A stretch of DNA of 64,000 bases from a virus (Duplodnaviria > Heunggongvirae > Uroviricota > Caudoviricetes): positions 1 through 64,000 of the IMG/VR virus record IMGVR_UViG_3300010429_001387; one strand, written 5' to 3'. This document shows, in pieces, positions 1,833 to 26,888 of the stretch. Within the stretch, counting starts at the first letter, position 1, and the number at the start of each line of letters is the position of its first letter. A program made the translations under genes and the position numbers. Below the pieces are notes generated by a model. It saw only the letters and a list, made by a program, of their open reading frames with translations, was not told where the DNA came from and searched no databases.

Positions 1833-2399
1833 TTATCTTAAATAGTCTCGTTTAACTGTTTGTTTGAGTTTTTCCTTCGGAACCAAATTATCACTACAAA
1901 AGAAAACTCCTTTTACTTCAAGAGGAGCTCCTTCAAGAGAAGTTAATCGATTCCCCATACATTTGAAATTACCATTTATTACTTTAGGAACTCCGATTAA
2001 CGAAGTTATTTTATTAAAAGAACAATTAAAATCTTTTCCGACTCTTTTAGGAGCATCATAAAGAGAAATCAATTCATTATTGTCACAATAAAAACTTCCG
2101 CGTACGTCGATTGGACATCCTTTTAATGAAGTCAGCTGATTGTAACTACAATCAAAATGTCCTTTTACTTCTTTAAATTTAACAGGAAGTTGAGTTAAAT
2201 GTAAATCGAATAAATCAACATCATATTTACATGAATATGTTCCATCATCATTTAAAATCCATTCTTGTTCTTTTACTAAACGTTCAATTCTATCTTTTAA
2301 TCGTTCGTCTCGTTCCGCTTTCGAGATCGGCTGGAATGCCGAGTCGAAGTCGGATTCTTCGAATACGTGAATTAGAGATTCATGGAGTTTAGAGAACAT
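1833..2399 (-). CDS. LRR-like tandem-repeat protein, paralog C (about 5 degenerate 22-aa repeats)
   Basis: N-terminal about 55 aa conserved with ORFs 3019..3519 and 4457..5020. Repeats follow the pattern 'F-C--N-LTSL-G-P--V-G-'. The C-terminus 'KQTVKRDYL' is conserved. Confidence 0.6.
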   Translation of the reverse strand: MFSKLHESLIHVFEESDFDSAFQPISKAERDERLKDRIERLVKEQEWILNDDGTYSCKYDVDLFDLHLTQLPVKFKEVKGHFDCSYNQLTSLKGCPIDVRGSFYCDNNELISLYDAPKRVGKDFNCSFNKITSLIGVPKVINGNFKCMGNRLTSLEGAPLEVKGVFFCSDNLVPKEKLKQTVKRDYLR

Positions 2400-3022
2400 T
2401 ACCCAATTCCTAATTCTCTCTTAATATCTGCATAATCTATTGAATTATCTTCTTCATCAAAACACTCTTTTGTTCCAGCAGGACCAACTGCAACAGCATA
2501 CTTTTTATTGTGGGTTTTATCAATCACAACATAAATTGTGATTCCTCCTTCCCAGTATTGATCCCACCAAGTCGCTGTTTTTCCAGAAATACACCATTTA
2601 GTATTAGCTCCATAAAAACATGACGCTTTGTGTGATTTTAATTTCACTATAAGGTATTTGTTTGTTTCTTGGATAATTTCAGAACCTTCTTCTTTGGCTT
2701 GCTTTTTAACTTCACCTTTAGTTTTTACTTTTGACCTATTTTGGATCAAATCATCCAATGATTCTAAATCGTAGGTATAGATATTAGATTCGTCTTTTTG
2801 TACAATTTTACGATTTACAAGGGGATCAAAAGCTTTTACAACATCAATAATATGACGTTGTCTAGTAGGATTTTGTAGATATTGTTTAAGCATCCACTGC
2901 AGATATTTCTTGCTTTTCGAAGGATCTTCTTTAAGAAATAATTCAAAAGCCTCTGCAGATACTTTATTAGTGTCGACATATTGTTGGTGAAGTTCTTTTG
3001 TGCCTTCTTCAAGATATTTCAT
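2399..3022 (-). CDS. Hypothetical protein of a 'TxWC'-motif family (paralog of 20117..20872)
   Basis: Shares 'KASCFYGANTKWCISG...TWWD...YVVIDK' with 'KASQWFCRGTRWCLGS...TYWE...YVLILK' in the other ORF. Its start and stop overlap the neighbouring genes. Confidence 0.55.
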   Translation of the reverse strand: MKYLEEGTKELHQQYVDTNKVSAEAFELFLKEDPSKSKKYLQWMLKQYLQNPTRQRHIIDVVKAFDPLVNRKIVQKDESNIYTYDLESLDDLIQNRSKVKTKGEVKKQAKEEGSEIIQETNKYLIVKLKSHKASCFYGANTKWCISGKTATWWDQYWEGGITIYVVIDKTHNKKYAVAVGPAGTKECFDEEDNSIDYADIKRELGIG

Positions 3023-3519
3023 AGATAGTCTCGTTTAACTGTTTGTTTTAACTGTTGTTCAGGGACAGGATTACGATAACAATCAAAATATCCTCCAACA
3101 TGTGCAGGTGCACCCTGGAGTGATGTTAGTCTGTTTCCACGACAAAAAAAATTTCCTCTAACATGTGCAGGTGCACCTTGGAGTGATGTTAGGTTGTTTT
3201 GGGAACAACTAAAATCTCCACCAACATGTGCAGGTGCACCTTGGAGAGATGTTAATTGGTTATGGAAACAATAAAAATGTCCTCTAACTTCCTTAAACGT
3301 AACAGGAAGTTTAGTTAAATGTAAATCGAAGAGATATACAGTCCCTTCACAAGAATAACTCCCGTCGGGATTTTGTATCCAGGATTGTTCTTTTGCTAAA
3401 CGTTCTATTTTTTGTTTGAGACGTTCGTCATATTCTTCGGGCGAAACCGGCTGGAATGCCGAATCGAAGTCGGATTCTTCAAATATTTGTTGAAGATTAT
3501 CGAAAAGTTGATAATACAT
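3019..3519 (-). CDS. LRR-like tandem-repeat protein, paralog B (3 near-identical 22-aa repeats)
   Basis: Three 66-bp tandem DNA repeats encode 'NxLTSLQGAPAHVxGxFxC'. The N- and C-termini are conserved with the paralogs. Confidence 0.6.
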   Translation of the reverse strand: MYYQLFDNLQQIFEESDFDSAFQPVSPEEYDERLKQKIERLAKEQSWIQNPDGSYSCEGTVYLFDLHLTKLPVTFKEVRGHFYCFHNQLTSLQGAPAHVGGDFSCSQNNLTSLQGAPAHVRGNFFCRGNRLTSLQGAPAHVGGYFDCYRNPVPEQQLKQTVKRDYL

Positions 3520-4436
3520 TACTTAATCCCCAGCATACTTTTTAGTTTAACAACATCTTCAGTTTCAATTTCATCATCTTGCATTAACTCGTTTAAATCT
3601 CCAATAATTTTCAAATACTGATATTTTGCTAAAAACTTAAAAGCTGCATTAGCATCATTCCAATCTTTTGCCAGCTTAACATCCTTTAACAACTCATCGG
3701 GAGATTTTTCTGGCATCTCAATGCTGCGAGCATCAATCCAAATTTTGCGTAAATCATAAAGTTTTTGAATATCAGCTTCAATTTCTTGTAATTTCGCTTT
3801 AGCTAATTGTAAGAATTTCTGTCGTTGGGCTTTTGACATGTTTACCATTGCTTTATGCAACGTATCAAAATCAATCGTATCTCGTTTTAATTCGCCTAAC
3901 AACATATCTGCTTCTTTAAAGGAATCTTGCATTCCCTTTAAAATCCCAGAATAATCTTGCATGGGGTCATAATCCGGTGGAACAATTCTTGGACCTTTAA
4001 TCCAAGCATTTGTTAATAGATCATAAACTCCTTCAGATCGATAGTCCTGCAAAGGATTAAACTGTATGGATATTTCGATCGGATGCTGACCAATAAAAGC
4101 ATCTAAGTCGGTTTGATGTTTTTCAAACCACTTACGAACTTCTTTAGCATCTTTTTCCGTCCATGGGGTTTTTGGAATTATATGCACATCAATATCTGTA
4201 TCTTCTGTATATTGATTTGTTGTAATTGACCCCACTATGTGAATTTGGTCTGCAAGCTCCTGAATATTAACAGTCGGATGTTGTTGCATTACTTTGTATA
4301 TCTTAGCTGCAACAGTATCTCGGAGCTTGTAGATACCATTTGGTTGTTTATCCCAAACCTGCAAATCCAATCCGGCTCGAGGATAATCGAGAAGTGATTC
4401 TTGGATTAGTTGGATTTTATTAAAAAGGTTTTGCAA
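3519..4436 (-). CDS. Pol-beta-superfamily nucleotidyltransferase
   Basis: 'VGSITTNQYTEDTDIDVHII' matches the hG[GS]x9-13Dh[DE]h NTase signature. An alpha-helical C-terminal half follows. The stop codon is shared with the downstream paralog. Confidence 0.6.
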   Translation of the reverse strand: MQNLFNKIQLIQESLLDYPRAGLDLQVWDKQPNGIYKLRDTVAAKIYKVMQQHPTVNIQELADQIHIVGSITTNQYTEDTDIDVHIIPKTPWTEKDAKEVRKWFEKHQTDLDAFIGQHPIEISIQFNPLQDYRSEGVYDLLTNAWIKGPRIVPPDYDPMQDYSGILKGMQDSFKEADMLLGELKRDTIDFDTLHKAMVNMSKAQRQKFLQLAKAKLQEIEADIQKLYDLRKIWIDARSIEMPEKSPDELLKDVKLAKDWNDANAAFKFLAKYQYLKIIGDLNELMQDDEIETEDVVKLKSMLGIK

Positions 4437-4456
4437 GGAATATTCTCAACTTTTAA

Positions 4457-5020
4457 TTATAAATAGTCTCGTTTAACTGTTTGTTTTAACTGTTGTTCAG
4501 GGACAGGATTACGATAACAATCAAAATATCCTCCAACATGTGCAGGTGCACCTTGGAGAGATGTTAGGTTGTTGTGAGAACAAGAAAAACTGTCTCCAAC
4601 ATGTGCAGGTGCACCCTGGAGAGATGTTAGGTTGTTGTGAGAACAATAAAAAGTTCCGCTTACAAATTGCGGTGCTCCCTCAAGAGAGGTTAATTTATTA
4701 GCATTACAATAAAAACTTCCTCCAACATGTGCTGGAGCACCTTGGAGGGATGTTAGGTTGTTGTGAGAACAATCAAAAGATCCTTTTATTTCTTTAAATT
4801 TTACAGGAAGTTGTGGTAAATTTAAACGATAGAGATTTACATCTCCATTACAGGAAAAAGTCCCATCAGGATTTTGTATCCACTTTTGTTCTTTCTTTAA
4901 ACGTTCAATTGTCTGTTTAATACGTTCTTGATGTTCCTCTTTCGAGATCGGCTGGAATGCCGAATCGAAATCATCTTCCTCGTAGATGTGGATTAAGTTT
5001 TCGAATAATTGATAATACAT
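4457..5020 (-). CDS. LRR-like tandem-repeat protein, paralog A (5 repeats)
   Basis: Five 66-bp tandem repeats encode 'NNLTSLQGAPAHVGGSFxC'. It shares the N-terminus 'MYYQLFENL...DFDSAFQP' and the C-terminus 'VPEQQLKQTVKRDYL'. Confidence 0.6.
   Translation of the reverse strand: MYYQLFENLIHIYEEDDFDSAFQPISKEEHQERIKQTIERLKKEQKWIQNPDGTFSCNGDVNLYRLNLPQLPVKFKEIKGSFDCSHNNLTSLQGAPAHVGGSFYCNANKLTSLEGAPQFVSGTFYCSHNNLTSLQGAPAHVGDSFSCSHNNLTSLQGAPAHVGGYFDCYRNPVPEQQLKQTVKRDYL
4520..4790. repeat. Tandem 66-bp coding repeats (5 copies). Related arrays lie at about 3100-3260 (3 copies) and, degenerate, at about 1900-2200
   Basis: Repeated 'catgtgcaggtgcaccttggagagatgttaggttgttgtgagaaca...' units are visible directly in the sequence. 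Confidence 0.8.
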
Positions 5021-5883
5021 TATTTCATGATCTTTAACAGGACTTTAGGCTTATCAGTTGTAATGAATTCAAAAATAACAGCGTCCTTAACTTCTTTAGT
5101 TTCAGTATGCCAATACCCTGCTTTTTGAAGTCCTTCCGCAACAAGATTAGCTATATCTTCGGGATGATCAATCGTAACTTCTTCATTGATGGATTCTTTG
5201 ATAAGTGAAATGGCTTTAGGTACTAATACCATTTTAAGATACACCATCTTAACATCTTCATCAGGATCAAGTTTAGAAGGATCGACAAAATCTTCCAATG
5301 AACTAAGAGCATCAATCATTTCATCATCTGTGGGCCATTCATTAGGAATCTTACCTGATTCAACTGCATCTCGAACAGCTTTGTTATCGTCTGGAGTAAG
5401 TTCTTCCATCTCACCCACTAGCTCAAGAACACCTTCAGTTAATGTTTTAATTACTTTCTCTTCATTGTCATCTTTGTTAGGGACTTTACCTTCTTTAACA
5501 ACCTTCTCGACTAATTCAGAAGAACAAAATGTACATTTACTTTCATTACTCCGAAATGTCTTAAAACAGGCATTACAAAGATAAAGATCAGACTTCTTAT
5601 TTTCTTTAGCCGCAGCTTTAGGCTTGGGATTTTGTGTATCTTTATCCGGAACTTCTTTCCAAGTCTTGTCATTTTTGAGCTTCGGCTTTGCTTTAGGACC
5701 ATTTAACTCCTGGTCAGAATAGTCTTCCATACCAATTTCTTCAGGAGTATTTTCGGGTTTTTTATCAGCAGGAGTCTGTTGTGGAACTTCAATAAGCTCG
5801 ATCTTTGTTTCTTCAATATCTAATCCAGCTTTCTTAAAAGCGTCATCCTCTCGCATTATATTAAGCAATCCCGTGAATTCCAT
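5020..5883 (-). CDS. Acidic protein with a zinc-ribbon and the 'EGKVPNKDDNEEKVIKTL' motif
   Basis: Contains 'CNACFKTFRSNESKCTFCSS' (CxxC...CxxC). It carries the same 16-aa motif, on a near-identical 47-bp DNA segment, as the giant ORF at 16361..20101. Confidence 0.55.
   Translation of the reverse strand: MEFTGLLNIMREDDAFKKAGLDIEETKIELIEVPQQTPADKKPENTPEEIGMEDYSDQELNGPKAKPKLKNDKTWKEVPDKDTQNPKPKAAAKENKKSDLYLCNACFKTFRSNESKCTFCSSELVEKVVKEGKVPNKDDNEEKVIKTLTEGVLELVGEMEELTPDDNKAVRDAVESGKIPNEWPTDDEMIDALSSLEDFVDPSKLDPDEDVKMVYLKMVLVPKAISLIKESINEEVTIDHPEDIANLVAEGLQKAGYWHTETKEVKDAVIFEFITTDKPKVLLKIMK
5447..5493. repeat. Dispersed 47-bp near-identical segment. Other copies are at 18513..18559 and 19815..19861
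   Basis: 'ttaattactttctcttcattgtcatctttgttagggactttaccttc' occurs three times in two different genes, with one mismatch in the third copy. Confidence 0.85.
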
Positions 5884-7199: not shown

Positions 7200-10100
7200 T
7201 TAGGTTCCTTTTTGCCAAACAGTTATAGGTTCCATTCGACCAGCATAACAATTTTTCTTTGGATATTTACCTTCATATTCCGAACTAACATTTAAACTGA
7301 TCTTTTTTATCCAAGGTTGAATATGAGATAAAATTTCGTCTTTATGTTGTTCCCATGCAATTTTAGCAGCTTCTGATCGTTTTCCAATTGGAGCTTTAAT
7401 TTTCCACATACCTAAATGACTAACATGTCCAATTTCTTTCGGCCACATTTCTTTAGGAAAATATTCCTTTGATACATACACAACATATGTTGCTAATTTC
7501 TCTTCTTGAAGAGATTCATGGAATTGTGCTGCTAAACTTGGAGCATGAACTTCTTCTCCTCTGAGATACGCTGACAAATCAGATGATGATCGAAGAGGTA
7601 TAGAATCCCCTGTTCTATCAATCCACAAACTTGTTGAATCATGTAATTTTGCTATTTCCTGCAATGCTATGATCTGTTGTTGAGTTGGTTTTTGATTAAA
7701 ATCTAAATGCAATTCACCTTTATCAATATCTGAACTTACGCGGATCATCCCTGTATTTTTAGCTACACCATACCCATATGTATGAGGTAATAATATGTCG
7801 AAATGAGCACATTTAACCCATAGTATGGTACCATCATTAAGAATCCACAATTTTACAACGTGTTCACCAGGAAAAGTCGATTTTGTCATCAATTGTTTTT
7901 GAGTTGCCGGAGGAAACTTAGCTTTAAACCCTTGCTGCAGTTCTGGTAATTCGTCAGATTCCTGGATGGATTCATTTGCAGCCTTTTGACATTCCTTTTG
8001 ATATTTTTGACGAACCAATACAGTCCATGTCCAAGGCACAGGTTCAATTAATTCATAAGCTGTTTGGTAATCTGTATCAGACCATTTGTATCCTTTAGCA
8101 AGTTTTTTTACTTCAGGAAAAATCATTTCTATTTCTATTCGTTTTGGTTTAAATCCCTCTTCTTTTAAAATGTTTTTAAGTTGAATCATTTGCTTTGTAG
8201 TTGGTTCTTCATATAGATTTAAAACCAAATCAGTTTCACCATATGTTCGAAATTGTAATGCGGTTTTTTCAAAGTATTTACGATGAACTTCACCTGTACT
8301 TAATATTTCTGATCTACCATCTGAAAACACAACCCCTGCAGTTTCAAGTAATTGTTTTTTTGATTCATGGAATTGTGCTGCTAAACTTCGCACATTTCGA
8401 CCCATTGCTAAAATACTTCTTAATTCTTCTGGCCAATTATCATCTATTGGTTCAATAGATCCTTCCATATATGGGGGATTCAATCTTTGAACAATCATAC
8501 ATTGAATTGGTTCATGCCAACCATTTATTAATTTATTAACAGCAATAACTTGCTCTTTTGTTAAAATACCTCGAGTCCGAACAACAATAGTAGCTTTATT
8601 ATCGTATACCCAAGCTGGGTATATGCGATATTCTAAAGCTTGTAGTTCCAGAAAACTAGCATCATCATCTACATAGTCAGCATGTTCTTTTCTTGGGTCA
8701 TTTTCAAAAATACGACCATCAGGAAATACAAAACCTGACTTACCAAGATCTCGACCTTTGGCCGTTTCCTCAGTAATGGATTCAACTTTCTTCTTACCAA
8801 GAGCAATTCCTGCCGCTTTGAATCTCGCAGCTGTTTCTTTAGCTTTCCGTTCTGCCTTTTCAATTACGTCATTATAGAACTTCTTGATCCAATTTGCCAT
8901 TGTACCTTTATAGAATGGCAAAACTTTCATTAGATTCTGAAGATGCTTGCAGTATGCTCCATACTTTTTCGGATTTCGAATATCAGGTGATCGATTTTCA
9001 GGCTCACCATACTTAGCTCTATACTTGTCTTGGGAAAGGATATAGTCTCCTCCCCAATAAAGTTGTGCTGGACAGGAGCATGATAATTCAATATCACCAT
9101 TACTAAACATCTTAGCAGCTAATTTCTTAAGATCCACTTTATTGAGTTTCTTATTCCAATTTCTCCGATCCGCAACAAGACGTTCCAAATCTGGACCAAC
9201 ATTCTTCCATTTAACAACTGCATCATACCAAAGATCATCTTCAGTTGCTGAATGAATTCGAAACTCCCATTTATCCTTTTCCATATTATGCAACCGTATT
9301 CCCCCCTTGGCTGCAACTCCTGGAACTTTCTTAGGATTAGAATAGAAATCTGGGAATAGTCGAGTTATGGATTGTTGTTTCTTTTTAAGCTGAGAAAGAT
9401 TAGCTTCTTGTATTTCAGATTCATATGCTGGTTGGTTCAGAAATTCTGGTCCATCTTCAAGAGCCATTTTAAGCCGATTTGTATCAGTTACATCCACTGT
9501 TGCATAACCACCCTGGACCAAACTCAAATCTATAGATACACTATATAGTTTGTATTTATTAATCAATGTCATCACTGATTTTATCTGCTTAGGATTCAAA
9601 GTCCCACCAGTGTCAAGGGATATAGATTCATTTGGCACGATTCGTCCACGGATACCACCTGATCTTAAAAACAATCGTTGCAATTCATATGCCTCATCCT
9701 CTTGAGAAGTAAAACGCACAGCCTTTAACTTTTTCCAATCCTTGCCCGCAATCGTCGCAGCATGCCAAGCTGGCACAACAACTACGGATCCATCATTAAG
9801 TATCAGAAACTTAAGAAATTGATCTTCACCAGCACCCGTCCAAAGACTATTGGGTATGTCAAAAGATATTTGTTCACGTCCCTTAATCTCAGCCTGTAGA
9901 GGAGTCAAGGCCATTGGATTAGTACGGATCTTTGTGGCAACAGCTTCATCAACAGATTCATGAAACTGTGCTGCTAAGGATTTTTGTTTTACTTTTCCAG
10001 TTAAAATAGCAGGCAACTCTTTAGAAGATTTAATATTAAATGTTGTGCCAATATGTTCTAATACTACGGTTTTTGTATTATGCAAATCACATAATTTTTG

Positions 10101-10463
10101 CAACCATTTAATCTGTTCAATTGTAGGTTGTTTTTCAAAATCAATATACATCGTTTTATTTTCGGTTGAAGCTATTCGAATTGCACCAGAGACAATCAGT
10201 TCGTCAATATCAGAACCAGCGTCATATGCTGTTGAATAATGGATATCATCTACAAATATTGGTGTTCCATCATTTAACAGCCAAAATTTTACTAAATAGC
10301 TTTCAGTAGTAGCATGAGTAAAAAGCTCTGATTTCTTTGCAGGTCCAAAATGCTTTACTAAATTCTGTTGAACTTTAGGCAAAGCAGTTTCATTAACAAG
10401 AGAAACTTTCTTCTTGTCTTCTTTGAACAAATCTTTCGCATCATGAAAAATGCTATCAAACAT
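7200..10463 (-). CDS. Large protein (1087 aa) with a triplicated internal domain
   Basis: Three copies each of 'SLAAQFHES' and 'W(L/I)LNDG(T/S)' spaced about 280 aa apart. The matching DNA repeat 'ttcatggaattgtgctgctaaac' occurs near 7520, 8355 and 9960. Confidence 0.6.
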   Translation of the reverse strand: MFDSIFHDAKDLFKEDKKKVSLVNETALPKVQQNLVKHFGPAKKSELFTHATTESYLVKFWLLNDGTPIFVDDIHYSTAYDAGSDIDELIVSGAIRIASTENKTMYIDFEKQPTIEQIKWLQKLCDLHNTKTVVLEHIGTTFNIKSSKELPAILTGKVKQKSLAAQFHESVDEAVATKIRTNPMALTPLQAEIKGREQISFDIPNSLWTGAGEDQFLKFLILNDGSVVVVPAWHAATIAGKDWKKLKAVRFTSQEDEAYELQRLFLRSGGIRGRIVPNESISLDTGGTLNPKQIKSVMTLINKYKLYSVSIDLSLVQGGYATVDVTDTNRLKMALEDGPEFLNQPAYESEIQEANLSQLKKKQQSITRLFPDFYSNPKKVPGVAAKGGIRLHNMEKDKWEFRIHSATEDDLWYDAVVKWKNVGPDLERLVADRRNWNKKLNKVDLKKLAAKMFSNGDIELSCSCPAQLYWGGDYILSQDKYRAKYGEPENRSPDIRNPKKYGAYCKHLQNLMKVLPFYKGTMANWIKKFYNDVIEKAERKAKETAARFKAAGIALGKKKVESITEETAKGRDLGKSGFVFPDGRIFENDPRKEHADYVDDDASFLELQALEYRIYPAWVYDNKATIVVRTRGILTKEQVIAVNKLINGWHEPIQCMIVQRLNPPYMEGSIEPIDDNWPEELRSILAMGRNVRSLAAQFHESKKQLLETAGVVFSDGRSEILSTGEVHRKYFEKTALQFRTYGETDLVLNLYEEPTTKQMIQLKNILKEEGFKPKRIEIEMIFPEVKKLAKGYKWSDTDYQTAYELIEPVPWTWTVLVRQKYQKECQKAANESIQESDELPELQQGFKAKFPPATQKQLMTKSTFPGEHVVKLWILNDGTILWVKCAHFDILLPHTYGYGVAKNTGMIRVSSDIDKGELHLDFNQKPTQQQIIALQEIAKLHDSTSLWIDRTGDSIPLRSSSDLSAYLRGEEVHAPSLAAQFHESLQEEKLATYVVYVSKEYFPKEMWPKEIGHVSHLGMWKIKAPIGKRSEAAKIAWEQHKDEILSHIQPWIKKISLNVSSEYEGKYPKKNCYAGRMEPITVWQKGT

Positions 10464-10477
10464 TAACCATTAACTCC

Positions 10478-11065
10478 TCATTCTTGAATTGGTAAAATCG
10501 CATTATGGTTTCCCAATACACGATAATTAATTACTTTACCTGTGTCTGTCAAATAGACTTTTTCTATTGCAATTCCCCAACCTTTTGAATCTTCCTTTAA
10601 ACCCTGCAAGATTTCCGATTTCAACTCTTTGCGAGCACTAGTTACAAGCTCCTGCAATGTCTTCTCAGCTATGAAGTCATGTATCACACCCAATGCTAAG
10701 GTCTGTATATTTTTGTCGTGATCAAAGTTCTTAAACAATGCTTTCTTAGCAGATGTAAGATGATAACGCAATGCTCCAGAAATTATGACTTCTTGCCCAT
10801 CTCTTGTCCAAGCAGATTGTGCTGGAAGATCTACAATTTGAGTTTTAACTTTTACCTTCTCAGCATTTTGGACTAAAAACCAAATTATGTGCCAACCAGG
10901 CATTAATTCTTTTACCCAGACACCCCCATCTATATTGTCACGATTCCAAGGCCAACCATTCCATAATTTAGGTGTAACACGAACCCCCAACTCATCAGGA
11001 TTGATTATCCATAAACGAGGAATCACAGACAATATTTTATCCAGAAGTTGATACAGCCAATCCAT
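10478..11065 (-). CDS. SPFH/band-7 domain protein
   Basis: 'DGQEVIISGALRYHLTS...WGIAIEKVYLTD' resembles the SPFH core, including the 'GI.V..V.I.D' element. Confidence 0.45.
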   Translation of the reverse strand: MDWLYQLLDKILSVIPRLWIINPDELGVRVTPKLWNGWPWNRDNIDGGVWVKELMPGWHIIWFLVQNAEKVKVKTQIVDLPAQSAWTRDGQEVIISGALRYHLTSAKKALFKNFDHDKNIQTLALGVIHDFIAEKTLQELVTSARKELKSEILQGLKEDSKGWGIAIEKVYLTDTGKVINYRVLGNHNAILPIQE

Positions 11066-11088: not shown

Positions 11089-11820
11089 TTATTGACGTCT
11101 GTGGAAGCAAACCCAGCGGCCTTCTTTTGCTAATTTCTCTTGCAATTCTTTAACCTCTTGTTTTCCCTCTGACATTAAAGCTTGTCCGTCAAGATTTAAT
11201 CCGGCAGCAACAGTCTTCCGTAACGTATTACCTTCAATTTGTTTTACCAATGCTTTTGTATAATACAATATCCAATCATTAATATGTTGGCTGTCAATAT
11301 CATCGGTTGGAATAATCCTCTTTGTTCCTAACACATACAATGCTGTCGTACCTGTTGGAACATTTCGACAATATAGATAACCACCTTCAGTTGGATCATC
11401 ATGATTTTCTTCAAAATACCAACGGAAATTAGCTCCTACATAAATATTAAATGTCTTAAAGGCTTCAGTTGCCATAATTAGATCGGTACGAATATTATCC
11501 AATACAGCAATGCCTGCAAGAGACCAAGTTGGATATTCGTTCCAAATCCAGTTAGAATTCTTGTTAGGATATATTTGTACAACAGACTTGAATTGTTCCG
11601 ACAATTGAACTCTCGTTTGTCCGGGTGCATATGTAACCATTTGTGAGATTTTGTATGCGGAATGTGTATTCCAATATCGAACAGCATTATCTATCTGTTG
11701 TTCAATTGTAGCATCAGGAGTAGCAAGGGTAAGAGGTTCAAACTCCGCTTTTATCCAAGCAACATATTTAGATTTATCGTCTAATATTGACAAAGCAGCC
11801 ATTAAGATTTCCTCTTGCAA
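11089..11820 (-). CDS. Hypothetical protein (243 aa)
   Basis: Long ORF on the coding strand. Confidence 0.5.
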   Translation of the reverse strand: MQEEILMAALSILDDKSKYVAWIKAEFEPLTLATPDATIEQQIDNAVRYWNTHSAYKISQMVTYAPGQTRVQLSEQFKSVVQIYPNKNSNWIWNEYPTWSLAGIAVLDNIRTDLIMATEAFKTFNIYVGANFRWYFEENHDDPTEGGYLYCRNVPTGTTALYVLGTKRIIPTDDIDSQHINDWILYYTKALVKQIEGNTLRKTVAAGLNLDGQALMSEGKQEVKELQEKLAKEGRWVCFHRRQ

Positions 11821-12407
11821 TTTGTATATTGATGGAAATTACCTGGAGCAGGAACAGAAGGAACTTCATCTGTTGGTTCATTATCTTCTTCTGCTTCTGC
11901 CATTGCTGGTTCCAAAGAAACAGCATTATATGTTTTTAACCATTCTTCCATAAGTTCTTTAGCTCGAATATGGTGGTAATAAGAAGGATCCTCTTCATAG
12001 TAAGGTAGAGCAACTTTTTGCATCTCATGTATGGCTTCCCCATTTATGTTTTGCACATCTAATTGCCCAACTTTTTTGAATATAGCTGGTTGTAATATCC
12101 AATGCTCTTCTGTTACTTCTGCATCAAATACACCTGTTGCTGGAACTGCAGGAGCATGAGTTGTATAAACATATATTGTGTTGGGAAAAGAAAAGCCAAC
12201 TACACCCGCAACTAAACATCCTGCTAATGATGGTGAAACACATATACGTGGAGTATCTGGTTCCCCTTGACAAGACGATGTTGGTTCTCTGGGAAGAAAT
12301 TTAACTTCAGGACCAAAGTCTGTGGTCGATATATGATACCAAGTTCGTTCTTCTTGTTCCCGCAAATTCAATAGGGATTCACATAATTGATGATACTTTG
12401 ATATCAT
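11802..12407 (-). CDS. Hypothetical protein (201 aa)
   Basis: Long ORF. It overlaps the upstream gene. Confidence 0.5.
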   Translation of the reverse strand: MISKYHQLCESLLNLREQEERTWYHISTTDFGPEVKFLPREPTSSCQGEPDTPRICVSPSLAGCLVAGVVGFSFPNTIYVYTTHAPAVPATGVFDAEVTEEHWILQPAIFKKVGQLDVQNINGEAIHEMQKVALPYYEEDPSYYHHIRAKELMEEWLKTYNAVSLEPAMAEAEEDNEPTDEVPSVPAPGNFHQYTNCKRKS

Positions 12408-12834: not shown

Positions 12835-14340
12835 TTACGATCCTAACACATACCCACTTGCCAGGTTTTGAATCGCACCAGCACAGAACAGCCCAGCGTT
12901 GATCGTCTTGAAGGCTGCAGACGACATGAAGCCTTTCTGAGAGATCAAATCACTGGTAGTCAGTGTTGGCGTTGCGAACAGCGGAATATATGGACAGTAA
13001 ATGAAACCTGCATGCATATAGTCCGGTCCACGGAAACCTAACGTGTAGTTATTGGTCGATTTGAACGGATTCTGGATAACAGTTACCTGATTGTCCAGGA
13101 CACCAATCTTAATCGGACCAGTCGGAATTTGGACCGTAGGAGCAGGAGCAAAATGATCCTTGCCCAGCTGCTTGATAACTCGAGCAACATTGTTTCCACA
13201 AACCATGAAAGTCGCGATACCTCTCTTGGTCTTATCGAAGATGTTGTTCGAGCCTTCTTGGATACGATCCAGGAATTCCAGTTTCTTGAACACCCAAGCT
13301 TCACCCTGCGAAGGACGAGCATCCCAAGTCGTTGGAGCAGTTGCAGCATCACTTGATGCCGCAGCAGTATCAATATAGTCCAATCCACGTTGATCAATTG
13401 TGAACTTGATTTCCCCACCCAAATACTTCACAAGTTCACTCTCGAGATCAATACCGTGAGCCTTCTTAAGATCGATCTCTGCACCCAGCGACCATTTCGC
13501 TCTCAGAGGGAAATCCTGGGCAGTAACAGCCGACTGTGAAACCTCGATGTTCGCCTCGGGCACACCATCCAGATTGCCGTATGCATCAGCCGGAAGATCA
13601 TACTGATAGTCATAACTAATCAGGATTGTTGATCCAGAGGTTGATCCGGAAACTGTAAAGGCGTACACACCGGCCGCAGTAATGCTCCCTGTACCAGTAA
13701 TGTAATCACCAGTGATGTTACCATCCTCATCTGACGTACCCAGTTCAGTGTAAGTTGAGCTAACCTTCTGCTCAATCACAACATTTTCCAGGTTAATCAG
13801 GCCAGGAGCAAACGAGCAAGTTCCAGACTTCGAACCATCGCCAGCACCAGACACCGTTTCACGCTCAACGTGAGCAATCGCATACCGACGCTCAGATTGA
13901 CTTTCCGGATGTCCTGTCGTTGAAGACAACATGGTTCCACCTGAACTAACTTCACCCTTGCTGGTACCATACTTAACATCCAGATAGAACACAGCCGCAA
14001 TTCTACGATCAATTGCCTGAACGATAGAAACTTCATTCAGCACAAGTGTCGGCAGCAATGCAGCAATGACCGGCAGCTGAATACCCAAGAAGCTGATATT
14101 GTCTTCAGTTGTAGTCTCGAACAGACGACTGTTCTGCTTCACGCCACATTCGAGGATGGCATTGTACAGACACTGAGCAACGTTTCGCTTCTCGTGCAGG
14201 GTAATAGGACGATTGTGCTCTTCGAGCATGTACTTCTCAACAGATGCCAGAAGGGGTTTAATCTTGGGATGTTCCATGAGGGAATCCCGAGCAGCATCCA
14301 TCTTCCGCATTTCATTTTGAATCATTTCTTGCAGCTTCAT
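12835..14340 (-). CDS. Major capsid protein (candidate)
   Basis: 501-aa ORF directly downstream of the protease/scaffold gene, so size and order fit a T4/SPO1-like head module. No defining motif was found, so this is a positional call. Confidence 0.45.
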   Translation of the reverse strand: MKLQEMIQNEMRKMDAARDSLMEHPKIKPLLASVEKYMLEEHNRPITLHEKRNVAQCLYNAILECGVKQNSRLFETTTEDNISFLGIQLPVIAALLPTLVLNEVSIVQAIDRRIAAVFYLDVKYGTSKGEVSSGGTMLSSTTGHPESQSERRYAIAHVERETVSGAGDGSKSGTCSFAPGLINLENVVIEQKVSSTYTELGTSDEDGNITGDYITGTGSITAAGVYAFTVSGSTSGSTILISYDYQYDLPADAYGNLDGVPEANIEVSQSAVTAQDFPLRAKWSLGAEIDLKKAHGIDLESELVKYLGGEIKFTIDQRGLDYIDTAAASSDAATAPTTWDARPSQGEAWVFKKLEFLDRIQEGSNNIFDKTKRGIATFMVCGNNVARVIKQLGKDHFAPAPTVQIPTGPIKIGVLDNQVTVIQNPFKSTNNYTLGFRGPDYMHAGFIYCPYIPLFATPTLTTSDLISQKGFMSSAAFKTINAGLFCAGAIQNLASGYVLGS

Positions 14341-14356
14341 CTTTATAATCTCCTTA

Positions 14357-16249
14357 TTATGTCCAAGACTTTAGAAATCCTTTTACTAATTTGTCAGACG
14401 CAGATTGTTCTGCATCGACTATCACGGTTTCTTGGATTTTGACCTCCTTGATCTTCTCCGGATGAAGTGCACCCCGACGAGCAACACCAATAATCTTCTC
14501 CAAGAGACTATCTACATCATGAAGTGTTTCACAATCTTCGAGAAGTGCTCGAGTATTGGTATCAACCTTCAATCGCAGATGAGCCAAACGAGAATCGAAG
14601 TACTCAGCAAGTACCTCGTTACGTCCTGTTAATTTAGCATTGTTTGCAGTTTCAACTAATTCAGCTTGATGTGATTTATGGTATTCATCAAGCTTTGATT
14701 CAGCAATTGTTTTAGCTTCTTGCAACTGTTTAGTTGTCGAAGCCGCATCAGCTGCTTTTGTTTCTAGCATTGTTCGAAGACCATTAACTTCGGCTTCAGC
14801 AGTTTCTTGAATCTTCTTAATCCTATCTTGCAACATTCGAACTTGTAATTCAGAATGTTCAGATTCCTCTAATTCCTCGATTAACTTTTCACATTCTGCA
14901 CGAGCAGTTGCTTCTGCTATTTTAAGATTAGTTAATTGTGATTTGATATCAGAGGATTCATTTTCTTTAGTCTTTACTTCACCACGATGTGACTTACCTG
15001 ACTTATCATAGCAATAGCGAACATATTCATCTTTCTTTAATCCATGTTCCTTGTCACCTGATACTGTTCGAACTCGACCACCTTGGTCAACACATTTGTT
15101 GAATTCTTCATCTTCTTGAACTTCTTCGGACTCGGCAACTGAGGACTTTAATTTTTTCAAAGCATCCAATGCTTCATTTTCTGTATCAAACCAACCAGCT
15201 ACAATTTTATCGCGATTCAAATTTATAACAGCAAATTTCTGTGCTTTTTGCTGTGAAACAATGTCATATTGATCTGATGGGTAACCGGAATAATCTTCTT
15301 CCTCTTTTAGCTTTGATTCAGATTCTTCAACTGACTCCATGGGAAGTTCTTTTTCTTCCTCTTCCTCTGGAGTTTCCAATCCCATTTCGCCAGGAGCTAA
15401 TTCTGGTTCTTCGAGAGGCATTTCTTCTTCAGGAGCAACCATATCACCAGCAAGAACCCCACCTTCTTCTCCCGGAGGAACTTCCGGAGTTGGACTAACA
15501 CTTACATTAATCCCGGCACTATTCTGGATTGTAGTATTTCCAGCTAAGTCACCCGAAACTTGAATATTAGTTTGCTGACCTTTATCTTCAATATTAACAG
15601 AAATATTAGATTCATCAACCTTTAAGGATTCCAGCAGCTTAACTGCAAATGCTCTGTCTCCAGCCTTCATATGTTTGTTTTCTAACTCTCTCTGAAGAGT
15701 TTGTGCAACATTCATGCGAACATCAAGAGGTTCCACACCATATGTCGAAGGATCTGCTGTAAAATCAGTTGTTTTATATTGATATGATTCTGGAACAACT
15801 CGTTGGACCTTAACACCTTCACCTAACTCAACCTCTTCCAGATCACCTTCTGCTCTTGTAGACATTCCAACTTTGGATCCTGCTCTTAATAGACAATCAA
15901 CAATTCGACCAGTTGGAGTATCAACTATATCTACAGTTTGATAAACTTTGTTGGATGCTTCATCTATCCACATCTTATGAATAATGTGGGATGTTTCTCG
16001 GAGATCTGATTGGGTCTCCATCGGATGTTCAGCATGCCCAAATAGACAGCGATCCGCAAGCTTCTGTTGGAGTTCAGAATCTGAAAGAACTTTTTCCCAA
16101 ACTTCCTTATCATACACTCGACCATTTGCATTCTTTTCACCTAAATTACAAATGCAATAGGTTGCCCGAGACAATACACTTTCAGGAAGGTTATTTCGAT
16201 CAGATTCGACTAATTGAACATTAGCTTTTAAGCTTTCTATTAGCTTCAT
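14357..16249 (-). CDS. Prohead protease/scaffolding fusion protein (candidate)
   Basis: A globular N-terminal domain is followed by an acidic, coiled-coil-rich C-terminal half ('EEEEKELPMESVEESESKLKEEED', long heptad regions). It sits immediately upstream of the capsid candidate. Confidence 0.4.
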   Translation of the reverse strand: MKLIESLKANVQLVESDRNNLPESVLSRATYCICNLGEKNANGRVYDKEVWEKVLSDSELQQKLADRCLFGHAEHPMETQSDLRETSHIIHKMWIDEASNKVYQTVDIVDTPTGRIVDCLLRAGSKVGMSTRAEGDLEEVELGEGVKVQRVVPESYQYKTTDFTADPSTYGVEPLDVRMNVAQTLQRELENKHMKAGDRAFAVKLLESLKVDESNISVNIEDKGQQTNIQVSGDLAGNTTIQNSAGINVSVSPTPEVPPGEEGGVLAGDMVAPEEEMPLEEPELAPGEMGLETPEEEEEKELPMESVEESESKLKEEEDYSGYPSDQYDIVSQQKAQKFAVINLNRDKIVAGWFDTENEALDALKKLKSSVAESEEVQEDEEFNKCVDQGGRVRTVSGDKEHGLKKDEYVRYCYDKSGKSHRGEVKTKENESSDIKSQLTNLKIAEATARAECEKLIEELEESEHSELQVRMLQDRIKKIQETAEAEVNGLRTMLETKAADAASTTKQLQEAKTIAESKLDEYHKSHQAELVETANNAKLTGRNEVLAEYFDSRLAHLRLKVDTNTRALLEDCETLHDVDSLLEKIIGVARRGALHPEKIKEVKIQETVIVDAEQSASDKLVKGFLKSWT

Positions 16250-20116: not shown

Positions 20117-20872
20117 TTATTCACCATACATATCTTTACCTTTTTTAAATGTGGAAAAAGGCACATTTATACTTTTCAATAACACACTATTGAAATCTTG
20201 ATTTAAAAGATCATCTTTTTCATTATATATTTCTATGTATGTAGAATCTTTTATATTTGGTAGTGCTAAAATTCCGATTTTCGCATTTCTTGTTAATTTC
20301 ATAATCTTATATGGTTTTTCGTGAACGCCTCTTTCCCAAAATTCAAGATTAATTTTTAGTGGTTGTTTTAAAATTAAAACATAAAAATAATATCCATGGC
20401 GTTGTTTTTCTTCCCAGTATGTCGTATTTAATGACCCCAAACACCATCTTGTTCCACGACAAAACCATTGAGATGCTTTGTAATCAAAGATATTGTAAAT
20501 ACTACAATATTCATTATCAAAAACTAGTTGACTTCCCGCTTCTTGATGCTTTTTAGCTGGAGTTTGTTTTATATCTTTCAAAAGATTTTTTAATTGATCT
20601 GCATCAAATTGATAAATGTCGGTTTGTCCAGGTTGTAATAATTTGTGTTTTAGAAATAAATCGAAGTCATTGATTAGCTTAATTACATCTTCTGTTGAAG
20701 CACCATTTACAATTTCTCGGGCCATCCATTCTGTATATTTATTAGAATTTGTAAAATCTGCATTAACTATTTCTTCGAATGTTTCCGCATCAATTTTATC
20801 AGCATATTTCTTTCGAGCTGATGCATATCCTTCTTCTATTTGACACAACATTTCAAAAAGCTTTTCAAACAT
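20117..20872 (-). CDS. Hypothetical protein of the 'TxWC' family (paralog of 2399..3022)
   Basis: Contains 'ASQWFCRGTRWCLGSLNTTYWEE'. The N-terminal region is also similar to the paralog. Confidence 0.55.
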   Translation of the reverse strand: MFEKLFEMLCQIEEGYASARKKYADKIDAETFEEIVNADFTNSNKYTEWMAREIVNGASTEDVIKLINDFDLFLKHKLLQPGQTDIYQFDADQLKNLLKDIKQTPAKKHQEAGSQLVFDNEYCSIYNIFDYKASQWFCRGTRWCLGSLNTTYWEEKQRHGYYFYVLILKQPLKINLEFWERGVHEKPYKIMKLTRNAKIGILALPNIKDSTYIEIYNEKDDLLNQDFNSVLLKSINVPFSTFKKGKDMYGE

Positions 20873-25348: not shown

Positions 25349-25795
25349 TTACCATTCTTCCTCTTCTGGCAACTCATCCTTTTTCATTTTACATTCGACT
25401 TCAGGTTCATCTTCTGGACCAACCATTTCTTCTTTTGGCTCTTCCAGATTGCCTTCAAGATTTCCCGAAGCTGCATCAATATTAGCATCAACAGTGTTCA
25501 TAAGATATGTTTCAATATGTTCTTCTTCAATCTGATCCACCAAAATATGAAACAAATCTATCGTTGCCTCTTTGAATCGATCAAGAGCCTCAAGTCCTTC
25601 ACCATCATTTGTCAACTCTTCAATCTTATCAAACACTTCTCTTGGAAGATCGCCAGTTTTGTGTTCTGGCTCATCGACCCCCTGGACTGGAGTATCTGGT
25701 GTATCCGAAACTGGCGATTCCTCGTCTCGTGCCATTTCTTCTTGAACCACTTTATTTACATTTTCAAACAACTTTTCATAGTTAGCTCTGGTCAT
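25349..25795 (-). CDS. Acidic hypothetical protein (148 aa)
   Basis: D/E-rich ORF. Confidence 0.45.
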   Translation of the reverse strand: MTRANYEKLFENVNKVVQEEMARDEESPVSDTPDTPVQGVDEPEHKTGDLPREVFDKIEELTNDGEGLEALDRFKEATIDLFHILVDQIEEEHIETYLMNTVDANIDAASGNLEGNLEEPKEEMVGPEDEPEVECKMKKDELPEEEEW

Positions 25796-26702: not shown

Positions 26703-26888
26703 TTAGATTTCCTTGATGTCAACTTTGATAGGTTTAAAAAGTGTTCCTTGAAATTGCCATGATGCGTAATTACGTGCTTCAGATTTTGATTTAAATAATG
26801 TAGCATAGTATAGTTTATCCCATTGTTTATCAAAATCATCCCAATATAGATTTTTCTTTGTTTTATGTTTTAACACCCAAGCTTTCAT
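26703..26888 (-). CDS. Small protein of the 'MKAWV...NLYWDD' family (61 aa)
   Basis: Tandem paralog of 26891..27079. A related 60-aa ORF lies at 30928..31110. Confidence 0.45.
   Translation of the reverse strand: MKAWVLKHKTKKNLYWDDFDKQWDKLYYATLFKSKSEARNYASWQFQGTLFKPIKVDIKEI

Follow-up and report, generated by a model that had tools for sequence, protein, structure and literature searches.

The leucine-rich-repeat (LRR) genes of the environmental, T4-like phage from which the window derives (the whole 64,000-nucleotide stretch of DNA analysed here) are, together with genes for a TxWC domain of unknown function, variable accessory cargo within a cluster of virion structural genes, a setting overlooked by the first-pass annotation, and it is to the TxWC domain, not to the adjoining nucleotidyltransferase (NTase), that the LRR copies are tied functionally. 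[quoted passage not shown] The best inference is that these genes encode capsid-targeted, injected cargo resembling the internal proteins of T4, in which LRR and TxWC would work together, as one polypeptide in related phages and as the products of the split, coupled genes LRR-B, TxWC and LRR-C here; we give this explanation as a whole a probability of about 0.4.

Three LRR paralogs are encoded on the minus strand, as the open reading frame list confirms: A (4457..5020, 187 aa), B (3019..3519, 166 aa) and C (1833..2399, 188 aa). Alignment upheld their proposed paralogy, B and C being 76% and 60% identical to A, and the same N-terminus and C-terminal KQTVKRDYL occur in all three. In paralog A a leader of ~21 aa precedes a helical N-cap, LRR units (one degenerate, four of the canonical 21-aa, Cys-containing kind) and a C-cap with KQTVKRDYL at its end; B is shorter by exactly one 21-aa unit and matches A at the DNA level over its final ~30 codons; C has the same architecture, and DNA divergence among its repeat units (mutual identity 50-61%) makes it an older copy. 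Translational coupling of the block, also suggested at first pass, is supported by overlapping start and stop codons (TAATG at 5020, 3519 and 2399, ATGA at 3019-3022, and a further TAATG at 1587), the sole gaps between genes being 20 nt (4437-4456) and 9 nt (1824-1832). A fourth paralog begins just past window coordinate 1 (L004:4891-5082). In other samples, short contigs of this phage break off within LRR repeats, so the order of the copies rests on assembly through near-identical sequence.

Structure prediction bore out the suspected LRR solenoid: the AlphaFold2 model of paralog A (pLDDT 95, pTM 0.85) has as its top Foldseek PDB matches the LRRs of SspH1, IpaH9.8, IpaH3, SDS22, YopM and InlC, with probability 1.0, query TM-score up to 0.54 and 22-26% identity against the IpaH/SspH/YopM-type LRRs. 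Sequence models gave weak matches to InlJ and SspH2, InlJ being the sole NCBIfam model matched by all three paralogs (21-27 bits against a cutoff of 1,700). Each paralog is a 21-residue cysteine-ladder LRR solenoid of the bacterial type. Across 640 units C1, N4, L6, L9, G11, P13, V16 and F20 are invariant and positions 2, 3, 5, 19 and 21 most variable, the entropy maximum falling on the concave face, in support of the earlier idea of a diversifying binding surface; an invariant scaffold with hypervariable concave-face residues indicates that the paralogs are protein-binding modules.

The repeat unit, first described as 22 aa and 66 bp, is actually 21 aa and 63 bp, according to the tandem array of A that encodes the LRR units (4516..4778, unstranded; TRF period 63, 4.2 copies; direct-repeat spacing 63), the array of B (3078-3288; TRF period 63, 3.3 copies) and the 21-aa difference between A and B. 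Likewise the counts of 5, 3 and about 5 units become 4, 3 and 4 for NxLTSL, or 5, 4 and 5 for the FxC rung, in A, B and C. The DNA units, described as near-perfect, are so only in part: A1, A3 and A4 are 89-91% mutually identical (77-91% when B1-B3 are included), A2 is 64% identical to the rest, and the units of C are as divergent as given above. The longest common substring of A and B is an exact 90-nt tract at their 3' ends (4463..4552 = 3025-3114, unstranded), where sliding identity reaches 100% against ~64-80% over most of the gene; such a tract is a footprint of gene conversion or recombination and supports the earlier suggestion of ongoing gene conversion, or gain and loss of units, between the two. 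The motif string written in the first-pass annotation has 21 positions.

The TxWC protein (2399..3022, minus strand, 207 aa) is, judging from sequence, the true functional partner of the LRR, missed at first pass, because relatives carry the two fused in either order: TxWC before LRR in P0124, P0125, P0129-P0133, P0135 and P0138, and LRR before TxWC in P0127 and P0134. LRR units occur in 17 of the 148 top representatives of the TxWC family, for which phmmer returned 4,307 relatives. The protein, modelled by AlphaFold2 at pLDDT 86.5, has a helical domain at its N-terminal end and, at its C-terminal end, an alpha/beta domain in which T141, W143 and C144 are invariant; it begins without the leader. 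It appears to be a distant PcfJ-like (PF14284) domain: its relatives score 16.6-24.6 bits on PF14284 (cutoff 25), and its BFVD matches include PcfJ-like proteins and EST35_0205 of Pseudomonas phage PA5oct, a remote homolog (22% identity, E 5e-5) whose annotation describes a structural protein with ESI-MS/MS detection in virions. All of these have a TxWC-containing alpha/beta domain after a 'DPS..KYLQW' helical region, and the family is widespread, stand-alone as well as within giant multidomain proteins; the window protein differs in scoring under every Pfam threshold. No paper describing PcfJ activity was found in the literature. A second TxWC paralog (20117..20872, minus strand, 251 aa), just upstream of the head gene block, aligns with the first from its residue 12 (BLASTP, 28% identity, E 1e-22), and its extra 11 N-terminal residues, MFEKLFEMLCQ, resemble the LRR leader.

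The closest structural counterparts, IpaH9.8, IpaH3, SspH1/2 and YopM, share with the phage proteins short (20-22 aa) bacterial-type units with a Pro-containing end loop, and in these type III effectors, too, the LRR is a target-recognition module joined to a separate effector domain with a key cysteine. The phage proteins differ in being phage-encoded and far smaller, in their 21-aa unit with a core cysteine, and in lacking the NEL E3-ligase domain, their partner being the PcfJ-like TxWC domain; if they are delivered at all, the route would be the phage head rather than a secretion system.

Among relatives of the phage, LRR and TxWC genes occupy differing slots of a collinear head-tail gene backbone, with 1 to 4 or more LRR copies. 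The order in one relative (L007) is protease, major capsid protein (MCP) and TxWC-LRR copies, followed at some distance by a fourth copy; in another (L008) it is sheath, LRR, tube, LRR-TxWC and baseplate. No enrichment of the T4 late-promoter consensus was found. The LRR family is also far more frequent than the initial remark that such arrays are uncommon in phages would imply: the protein collection contains 1,648 relatives, over 1,600 of them metagenomic, members occur in 27 phage records (Vibrio, Lak and huge phages among them), and other contigs bear tandem arrays of 12-14 LRR paralogs. Giant viruses have expanded families of ankyrin or FNIP/LRR-type repeat genes, similarly arranged as tandem paralog arrays with variable repeat number, and in the BFVD search a Marseillevirus protein had the same TxWC fold fused to ankyrin repeats; those are families of eukaryotic viruses, whereas the genes described here belong to a T4-like structural operon with bacterial hosts.

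The leader of paralog A (residues 1-21, MYYQLFE|NLIHIYE|EDDFDSA; 4958..5020, minus strand), with its equivalents in B (3457-3519) and C (2337-2399, both minus strand), is a candidate capsid-targeting propeptide on sequence grounds, marked by two motifs, L-F/H-E at residue 7 and, at residue 14, [IV]-[YF]-E. Where TxWC precedes LRR in a fusion, the alignment of the LRR part starts only at residue 22-25, so that an internal LRR has no leader, which is carried instead by whichever domain comes first; many stand-alone TxWC proteins begin with the same leader, and its type recurs on unrelated proteins. Within the window, a 201-aa non-LRR protein (11802..12407, minus strand) that occupies the slot of a TxWC-LRR gene of L007 has an N-terminus, MISKYHQLCESLL, that is a close match to MISKFHNLFENLQ, the leader found on the fourth LRR paralog, and a very acidic protein of 148 aa (25349..25795, minus strand) has KLFE at residues 8-11, a leader-like N-terminus on an unrelated payload.

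The tripeptide L-F/H-E recurs at the predicted maturation site of the Gp23-type MCP (12835-14340, minus strand; PF07068, 144 bits), where alignments place cleavage after L-F-E at residues 73-75 (RLFE|TTTED; 14116..14124, minus strand); this site is conserved in three related phages and aligned with the T4 gp24 site LLRE|STTTN. LFE occurs six times in the 88 window proteins, three of the six in the first 11 residues of unrelated proteins (p ~0.004, partly post hoc), and a fourth is probably the MCP site. Nine of 133 proteins of the window and three related loci, from six unrelated families, have [LI][LFYIH]E with its Glu at residue 6 or 7 (0.77 expected); this statistic too is partly post hoc, the leader motifs having been noticed first and tested afterwards. 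The candidate processing enzyme is a T4 gp21-type prohead serine protease (Peptidase_S77) with a long C-terminal region fused to it (14357..16249, minus strand; PF03420, 40.1 bits against a cutoff of 27; phrog_207).

In T4, capsid-targeting sequences are N-terminal propeptides of 10-19 aa that bring into the head internal proteins with nothing else in common (PMC3012670, PMC9026906), and Alt is cleaved at ITE-6 (PMC5694885). Substitution of Asp at P1 stops processing but not targeting (PMC9026906), a result that bears on LRR-B because it has LFD at residue 7. The LRR genes resemble those for the injected, leader-bearing head proteins IPI, IPII, IPIII and Alt as putative small, non-conserved, multi-copy head accessories of the T4 type (PMC9026906, PMC5694885), and their products likewise have a short leader ending in hydrophobic-x-Glu, common to unrelated payloads, in a phage that encodes a gp21-family protease. 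No sequence similarity links them to the T4 leader or its payloads, and the phage LRRs are acidic to neutral, unlike the small, basic T4 internal proteins. The LRR and TxWC genes are cargo inserted at varying slots of the conserved late operon from which a T4-like myovirus makes its head, neck and tail, and they multiply and exchange sequence through unit slippage and gene conversion. The proposed sequence of events is that the ~21-aa leader, acting as a T4-like capsid-targeting sequence, would send the protein into the prohead core and then be removed by the gp21-type (S77) prohead protease; and the mature LRR or LRR-TxWC complex, ejected with the DNA in parallel to T4 IPI* and Alt, would bind some variable target in the host, for instance a defence protein, that TxWC might modify. 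Counting against this course are the leaderless TxWC copy of the window, the remoteness of the PA5oct match, the T4 late-promoter consensus without enrichment, and the points given below on family members without the leader and on the first helix.

It is rather unlikely that the LRR and TxWC proteins instead remain unpackaged and act inside the cell in host interaction or anti-defence, expressed late or continuously from 'moron'-like insertions into the structural operon, with the N-terminal helix being part of the fold. The differing positions and copy numbers among related phages fit such a role, as does the concave-face variability, which suits any binding function; many family members lack the leader (for example, in Vibrio phage SRILMA and the L012 array), some relatives lie outside structural modules (beside a helicase in SRILMA) or on cellular-looking contigs (L013), and the N-terminal helices are modelled with fair confidence as belonging to the protein, so that the first of them (residues 2-14, pLDDT ~80) could be a plain part of the LRR N-cap. 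Against this, the leader is separable, shared by unrelated payloads of the same gene clusters and matched to the predicted MCP maturation tripeptide, and the distant TxWC homolog of PA5oct was detected in virions.

Listeria internalin J is a cysteine-ladder LRR protein with a 21-residue repeat and a conserved cysteine at a core hydrophobic position, as in the phage units. Internalin-type LRRs are adhesins, and the weak InlJ match, the conserved ends with a variable middle, the location among head, sheath, tube and baseplate genes, and a vibriophage tail-module LRR protein proposed to function in host recognition (PMC10945359) could all point to external virion components, Hoc-like or internalin-like capsid decorations or tail-accessory adhesins, anchored by their ends and binding host or environmental surfaces through the variable LRR face. 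This is improbable for proteins of only 166-188 aa in which domain searches recognised no anchoring or trimerisation domain, with no fixed backbone slot such as is typical of a structural subunit, and with fusions to an intracellular-looking PcfJ-like domain, present also in giant multidomain proteins, that favour an effector over an adhesin. By sequence inspection the phage proteins differ from internalin J in their acidic, cytoplasmic-looking N-termini and C-termini without an LPXTG-type sequence, besides their phage context. Quite improbable is a role as head or tail assembly factors, chaperones or scaffold accessories that the protease would clear from the proheads containing them: co-transcription with morphogenesis genes and a leader with protease-like sites, features shared by T4 core proteins (PMC5694885), would agree with it, but essential assembly factors are normally single-copy, position-conserved and not hypervariable, whereas these genes number 1 to 4 or more in differing slots and vary most on the binding face.

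The putative Pol-beta-type NTase (3519..4436, minus strand, 305 aa, GS...DxD motif) is a borderline assignment, PF01909 scoring 20.8 bits, just below the cutoff of 21; its L008 homolog had no Pfam match, and a PDB profile search gave only a weak match to DrrA. The functional LRR-NTase module of the first-pass annotation, in which the LRR would target the NTase to a host factor, is very improbable even though the genes adjoin and the NTase stop codon overlaps the LRR-B start, considering that the L008 homolog (45% identical) retains the same backbone neighbours, downstream genes included, with no LRR beside it, the LRR genes there being among tail genes; that the sole match in the phage collection is partial (29% identity over 40% of the query, in a huge uncultured phage, LR756501.1/LR756503.1, records of identical length) and no close relative could be confirmed when the viral contig collection was scanned by pattern; that no LRR-NTase fusion occurs among ~290 family members inspected; and that the assignment itself is below threshold. 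By these sequence comparisons the NTase is a conserved backbone gene of the phage lineage, outside the LRR/TxWC module. The backbone gene upstream of it encodes an acidic protein of 287 aa (5020..5883, minus strand) with a CxxC...CxxC zinc-ribbon-like motif and no family match in domain searches, whose L008 homolog (29% identity, E 1e-13) is also directly upstream of the NTase.

The window derives from a T4-like myovirus, with genes for a Gp23-type major capsid protein (MCP; 12835-14340; PF07068, 144 bits), a gp21-type prohead protease of the Peptidase_S77 family (14357-16249; PF03420, 40.1 bits versus a cutoff of 27), a gp13-like neck protein (11089-11820) and a portal protein (35922-37883), all on the minus strand, which is also that of the block of leucine-rich-repeat (LRR) genes. 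All-against-all BLASTP of the window and three related loci reveals a collinear gene backbone. In the window the order is protease, MCP, 131 aa, 201 aa, gp13-like, SPFH, 1087 aa, 291 aa, 161 aa and 287 aa, followed by the LRR paralog LRR-A, a nucleotidyltransferase-like gene, LRR-B, the TxWC protein, LRR-C, proteins of 78 aa, 162 aa and 73 aa and, further on, a 313-aa protein and a fourth paralog, LRR-D. Contig L007, with an MCP 75% identical to that of the window, has protease, MCP, two TxWC-LRR fusions, 98 aa, another TxWC-LRR, gp13-like and, further on, another TxWC-LRR and 948 aa; contig L008, which matches the window in the nucleotidyltransferase (45% identity) and the 162-aa protein (44%), has 470+ aa, nucleotidyltransferase, 82 aa, 162 aa and, further on, 302 aa, 139 aa, sheath, 436 aa, LRR, tube, 176 aa, LRR-TxWC and baseplate. 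From these collinear orders the backbone includes the nucleotidyltransferase-like gene and the gene for the acidic zinc-ribbon protein of 287 aa, whereas the slot of the LRR and TxWC genes differs in every genome compared. The pairing of LRR arrays with a nucleotidyltransferase proposed in the first-pass annotation is not conserved. The assignment of ORF 3519-4436 (minus strand) to the Pol-beta-fold nucleotidyltransferases is borderline on sequence: the motif VGS...DIDVH, of the hG[GS]...DxD type, is present and conserved in the L008 homolog, and the score with PF01909 is 20.8 bits versus a cutoff of 21. Pfam gave no match to the L008 homolog, a profile of the family gave only a weak PDB match to DrrA (E 0.49), PDB sequence searches with the nucleotidyltransferase, its profile and the TxWC protein returned nothing usable, and an IMG/VR pattern scan did not confirm a relative. 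What merits study as the partner of the LRR proteins is the TxWC domain; the nucleotidyltransferase is a bystander.

The TxWC protein (2399-3022, minus strand), with invariant T141, W143 and C144, belongs to a family in which the same LRR is found fused to the TxWC domain in either order, TxWC first in P0124, P0125, P0129-P0133, P0135 and P0138, and LRR first in P0127 and P0134; the window order LRR-B, TxWC, LRR-C, in which each stop codon overlaps the next start, presents both fusion orders as split genes. We put at above 0.8 the probability that the LRR binders are functionally coupled to a PcfJ-like domain and constitute variable cargo in the late structural operon. The window TxWC protein has no match in Pfam, and three of its fused relatives fall just short of or below the cutoff of 25 bits for the PcfJ-like family PF14284 (P0138, 24.6; P0131, 17.2; P0134, 16.6) over the same region of the profile, 30-117. 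Structural matches in BFVD include uncultured Caudovirales proteins, some of them named PcfJ-like (E 7e-5 to 5e-3), a Marseillevirus ankyrin-repeat fusion, a siphovirus 'leucine-rich repeat protein' and the PA5oct structural protein A0A4Y5JTQ7. The gene of the latter, EST35_0205, is annotated 'structural protein; ESI-MS/MS' and has further MS-detected virion genes as neighbours; 93 gene products from PA5oct virion particles have been identified by ESI-MS/MS (PMC7318152). Exhaustive phmmer with the TxWC protein found 4,307 cluster representatives at E 1e-3 or better, and a Rosetta-stone link ties the LRR proteins to this large PcfJ-like domain family (>4,300 cluster representatives). These relatives either stand alone at about 210 aa or form parts of larger proteins, the longest of 2,421 aa; one protein can hold as many as five copies, and LRR units accompany the domain in 17 of the 148 top representatives. 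The window also encodes a second TxWC paralog (20117-20872), which is 28% identical to the first (E 1e-22). A literature search for the function of PcfJ found no paper.

The three minus-strand ORFs recognized earlier as LRR paralogs, LRR-A (4457-5020, 187 aa), LRR-B (3019-3519, 166 aa) and LRR-C (1833-2399, 188 aa), are real and related: LRR-B and LRR-C are 76% and 60% identical to LRR-A, respectively, and all three align over an N-terminal region of about 75 aa and a C-terminal ...KQTVKRDYL, LRR-B being shorter than LRR-A by exactly one repeat unit. That unit had been described as 22 aa (66 bp); it is 21 aa (63 bp), because Tandem Repeats Finder places arrays of period 63 at 4516-4778 and 3078-3288 and the direct-repeat spacing is also 63. 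The unit numbers of 5, 3 and about 5 for LRR-A, LRR-B and LRR-C likewise need correction, to 4, 3 and 4 by the motif NxLTSL, or 5, 4 and 5 by FxC rungs. Start and stop codons overlap as reported, in the form TAATG at 5020, 3519 and 2399 and ATGA at 3019-3022, with a further TAATG at 1587, and the only intergenic gaps in the block are of 20 nt and 9 nt. Scans for sigma-70 promoters, terminators and the T4 late-promoter consensus TATAAATA found none above chance, so the operon boundaries cannot be placed. No match to the LRR block emerged from a megablast search of 50,697 phage records, and its matches in Pfam, NCBIfam, PHROGs and PADLOC were limited to LRR and nucleotidyltransferase models below threshold and to PHROGs of unknown function. 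At the ATGA, where the LRR-B stop overlaps the TxWC start, a simple frame change separates the split genes from the single ORF that carries the same domain pair in P0127 and P0134; programmed frameshifting here to produce a fusion was considered and dropped, with no slippery sequence or other evidence for it.

DNA identity is 89-91% among units A1, A3 and A4 of LRR-A and 77-91% in the whole set of A1, A3, A4 and B1-B3, with unit A2 as an outlier (64%); the units of LRR-C are no more than 50-61% identical to each other, and since identities vary in this way the description of the DNA units as near-identical is valid for LRR-A and LRR-B only. An exact tract of 90 nt is common to LRR-A and LRR-B (4463-4552 = 3025-3114), where the background identity along most of the gene is about 64-80%. 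LRR-D begins just beyond window coordinate 1, after the 313-aa gene that runs off the window start, and is seen on the short same-phage contig L004 (4891-5082); its first 64 residues are MISKFHNLFENLQFVFEESDFDSAFQPISKEEHQ..., and it is 99% identical to LRR-A over 134 nt but differs in its N-terminal leader (MISKFHNLFENLQ). Gene conversion and gain or loss of units, which had been proposed to be ongoing, are well supported for LRR-A, LRR-B and LRR-D. Three other samples yielded short contigs of this phage (100% identity over 1.5-4.6 kb); the lengths of LRR-B and LRR-C are unchanged in them, so no copy-number polymorphism was seen. Assemblies are fragile at this locus, as both 5-kb contigs (L004 and L005, from two other samples) end within LRR-A and LRR-D.

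Structure prediction bears out the proposed LRR-like solenoid. LRR-A as modelled by AlphaFold2 from an alignment of 69 family members (mean pLDDT 95, pTM 0.85) has N-terminal helices (residues 2-14, 18-21 and 27-44), short strands every 21 residues and a C-terminal helix, and the predicted curved solenoid, with one beta-strand per unit in a parallel sheet, is that of the LRR superfamily. Its best Foldseek matches in the PDB are the LRR domains of SspH1, IpaH9.8, IpaH3, SDS22, YopM and InlC (E modest, about 1e-2; probability up to 1.0; query TM-score up to 0.54), and all but about one of the top 50 PDB matches are LRR proteins or LRR-containing complexes. LRR proteins have tandem units of 20-30 residues built around the conserved segment LxxLxLxxN/CxL; the 21-aa units here carry it as F20-x-C1-x-x-N4-x-L6, with V16, L9, G11 and P13 near-invariant. 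Among 640 units from 143 family members, C1, N4, L6, L9, G11, P13, V16 and F20 are near-invariant, and entropy is highest (2.75-3.3 bits) at positions 2, 3, 5, 19 and 21, which lie on the concave face, flanking the beta-strand core; this pattern is the signature of an LRR protein with a binding face diversifying on a fixed scaffold. Curated profiles stay below their cutoffs (PF12799 LRR_4, 23.7, 13.7 and 11.6 bits versus 27; PF01462 LRRNT, 24.2 versus 25.8), the Pfam repeat models being poorly suited to this LRR subtype, and the NCBIfam models for internalin J and SspH2 match weakly.

In fold and architecture the window proteins come closest to the LRR domains with which IpaH/SspH effectors recognize their targets and to the cysteine-ladder LRR of InlJ, with its 21-residue repeat; in proposed logic they come closest to the internal proteins of T4. 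IpaH/SspH proteins have a C-terminal NEL E3-ligase after the LRR, whereas the window proteins end about 20 residues past the last unit and have no NEL match in Pfam or NCBIfam. Like internalin J they have 21-residue units with a conserved core Cys, but they score 20.9-27.2 bits with NF033187 versus a cutoff of 1,700, with no full-length match, and, unlike those of secreted wall-anchored internalins, their N-termini are acidic, with no hydrophobic signal sequence. No similarity to T4 IPI-III is found in them. The window proteins are therefore placed outside all three families, having neither NEL, internalin architecture nor IPI-III similarity.

LRR-like arrays had been considered uncommon in phages, a view that cannot be maintained for this type in large phages, given its wide occurrence and its tandem arrays. 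The small phage LRR family is very abundant: a protein search found 1,648 relatives, every one named 'hypothetical', and tblastn located the family in 27 phage records, with carriers including Vibrio phages of about 195 kb, Lak and huge phages of 540-735 kb and Ralstonia phage RsoM2USA. The copy in Vibrio phage SRILMA has eight near-perfect units, and tandem overlapping paralogs number 14, 12 and three on contigs L011, L012 and L013, respectively. The first two arrays (L011:5116-16224 and L012:3347-10376, on scaffolds of 134 kb and 419 kb) are each on one strand, and each is marked by a conserved terminus of its own, either N-terminal (MRHIKxYxxLFESQTEL...) or C-terminal (...AAELIRAGYKENARW). 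The three paralogs of L013, a 132-kb scaffold, lie amid cellular-looking genes (NrdD, VirB8, ribosomal protein L28, Cpn60/Cpn10 and aspartate-semialdehyde dehydrogenase), so the family is not confined to phages, unless L013 is a very large phage. The LRR fold itself is ordinary. A literature search for phage LRR proteins found only one claim, of an LRR in a tail module at 10% HHpred probability, and found no description of an abundant small phage LRR family, of LRR/PcfJ-like pairing or of a shared leader; the pairing, the mobile-cargo behaviour in T4-like structural operons and the leader appear to be undescribed.

The LRR part of TxWC-LRR fusions aligns to LRR-A from residue 22-25 only, so residues 1-21 are a separable N-terminal segment, present only where the LRR comes first. 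As judged from their sequence, the leaders resemble T4-type propeptides, which are short, N-terminal and end in hydrophobic-x-Glu (LRR-A, LFE-7 and IYE-14; LRR-C, LHE-7 and VFE-14; LRR-B, LFD-7 and IFE-14), and the genome encodes both the gp21-family protease and the Gp23-type capsid protein expected alongside T4-type internal proteins. The shared leader also matches the predicted maturation site of the capsid protein, a conserved RLFE-75/TTTED that MAFFT aligns with LLRE/STTTN of T4 gp24, which is cut at this point, after residue 10. A propeptide of that size is cited for gp24 (PMC5694885). T4 internal proteins and Alt have N-terminal capsid-targeting propeptides of 7-19 residues, which gp21 cuts off behind a hydrophobic-x-Glu motif; the injected anti-defence proteins are otherwise diverse, with conservation confined to the leader, and Asp at P1 stops cleavage but not targeting (PMC3012670, PMC5694885, PMC9026906).

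Leader-like starts occur on TxWC-only proteins (MIDLLEKLLD..., MNELLERLL..., MFVELYENL...), on the second window TxWC paralog (MFEKLFEMLCQ), and on unrelated proteins of the window (11802-12407, MISKYHQLCESLL; 25349-25795, ..EKLFENV), of L008 (142 aa, VFDEIFENV; 436 aa, MFGYLFEKL) and of L007 (143 aa, MFCCLLEQIL; 948 aa, MIQNLIENL). By a motif definition that is partly post hoc, [LI][LFYIH]E ends at residue 6 or 7 in 9 of the 133 proteins of the window and related loci, representing six unrelated families, versus an expected 0.77. 'LFE' shows a positional bias: of just six occurrences among the 88 proteins predicted for the window, three lie within the first 11 residues of unrelated proteins, and a fourth is probably the MCP site. 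The leader motifs were noticed before testing; the strict pattern derived from the LRR paralogs, [QKN]L[FH][ED][NS]L, has no match outside them, and the matches in other proteins require a relaxed, post hoc version.

The leader, MCP-site and 'LFE' evidence, taken together with the T4 parallel, makes leader-tagged head cargo the most economical, if still tentative, reading of the LRR and TxWC proteins. For their putative presence in the head, cleavage by the protease and ejection into the host, the MS-detected TxWC-domain protein of PA5oct is the only indirect support. The N-terminal helix may instead belong to the LRR fold, and many members of the LRR family have no leader. If the leader is a capsid-targeting signal, the 'internal protein' strategy of T4 would extend to a far broader range of uncultured phages, a sequence rule for predicting injected proteins would be available, and LRR/TxWC pairs would be candidate injected anti-defence effectors; even if it has no targeting role, the annotation logic of the locus is corrected.

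A fuller mechanism, which we regard as doubtful, is that a portable N-terminal leader, M-x-x-x-[LI]-[FYLH]-E, serves T4-like phages in the environment as the tag by which a modular arsenal is loaded into the capsid. This arsenal of LRR binders, TxWC domains of the PcfJ-like type, fusions of the two and further payloads would enter the host by injection with the DNA. Unit slippage and gene conversion would diversify the LRR paralogs into re-targetable adaptors, and these might direct the cysteine-bearing TxWC effector onto variable host defence proteins, much as bacteria deliver LRR-NEL effectors through type III secretion, of which this would be the phage counterpart.

Several other genes of the window have features of their own. 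An SPFH/Band 7 protein (10478-11065, minus strand; PF01145, 68 bits) lies within the head-neck block and is unusual in a phage structural module. The prohead protease, at 630 aa, is about three times the size of T4 gp21, with its S77 domain confined to residues 40-144; the long C-terminal extension, kept in L002 and L007 (707-710 aa), may be a fused scaffold. Directly upstream of the protease, a 1246-aa protein (16361-20101, minus strand) has a DUF5661 segment (49 bits) as its sole family match, and its homologs on L002 and L007 are very different in length. Two adjacent small ORFs (26703-26888 and 26891-27079, minus strand) have near-identical N-termini, MKAWVLKHKTKKNLYWDD and MKAWVIKQHHPKKNLYWDD, and have the look of one small gene duplicated in tandem. 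The 1087-aa protein (7200-10463, minus strand) contains SLAAQFHES three times (residues 164, 695 and 978), in every case closing a segment of about 150-190 aa that is itself repeated, and a SWIM-like CxC...CxH motif at residue 462. Its homolog in L007, of 948 aa, shares this zinc motif and has a single SLAAQFHEN; the 1087-aa protein may be a polyprotein of the head, with cleavage at F-H-E sites.
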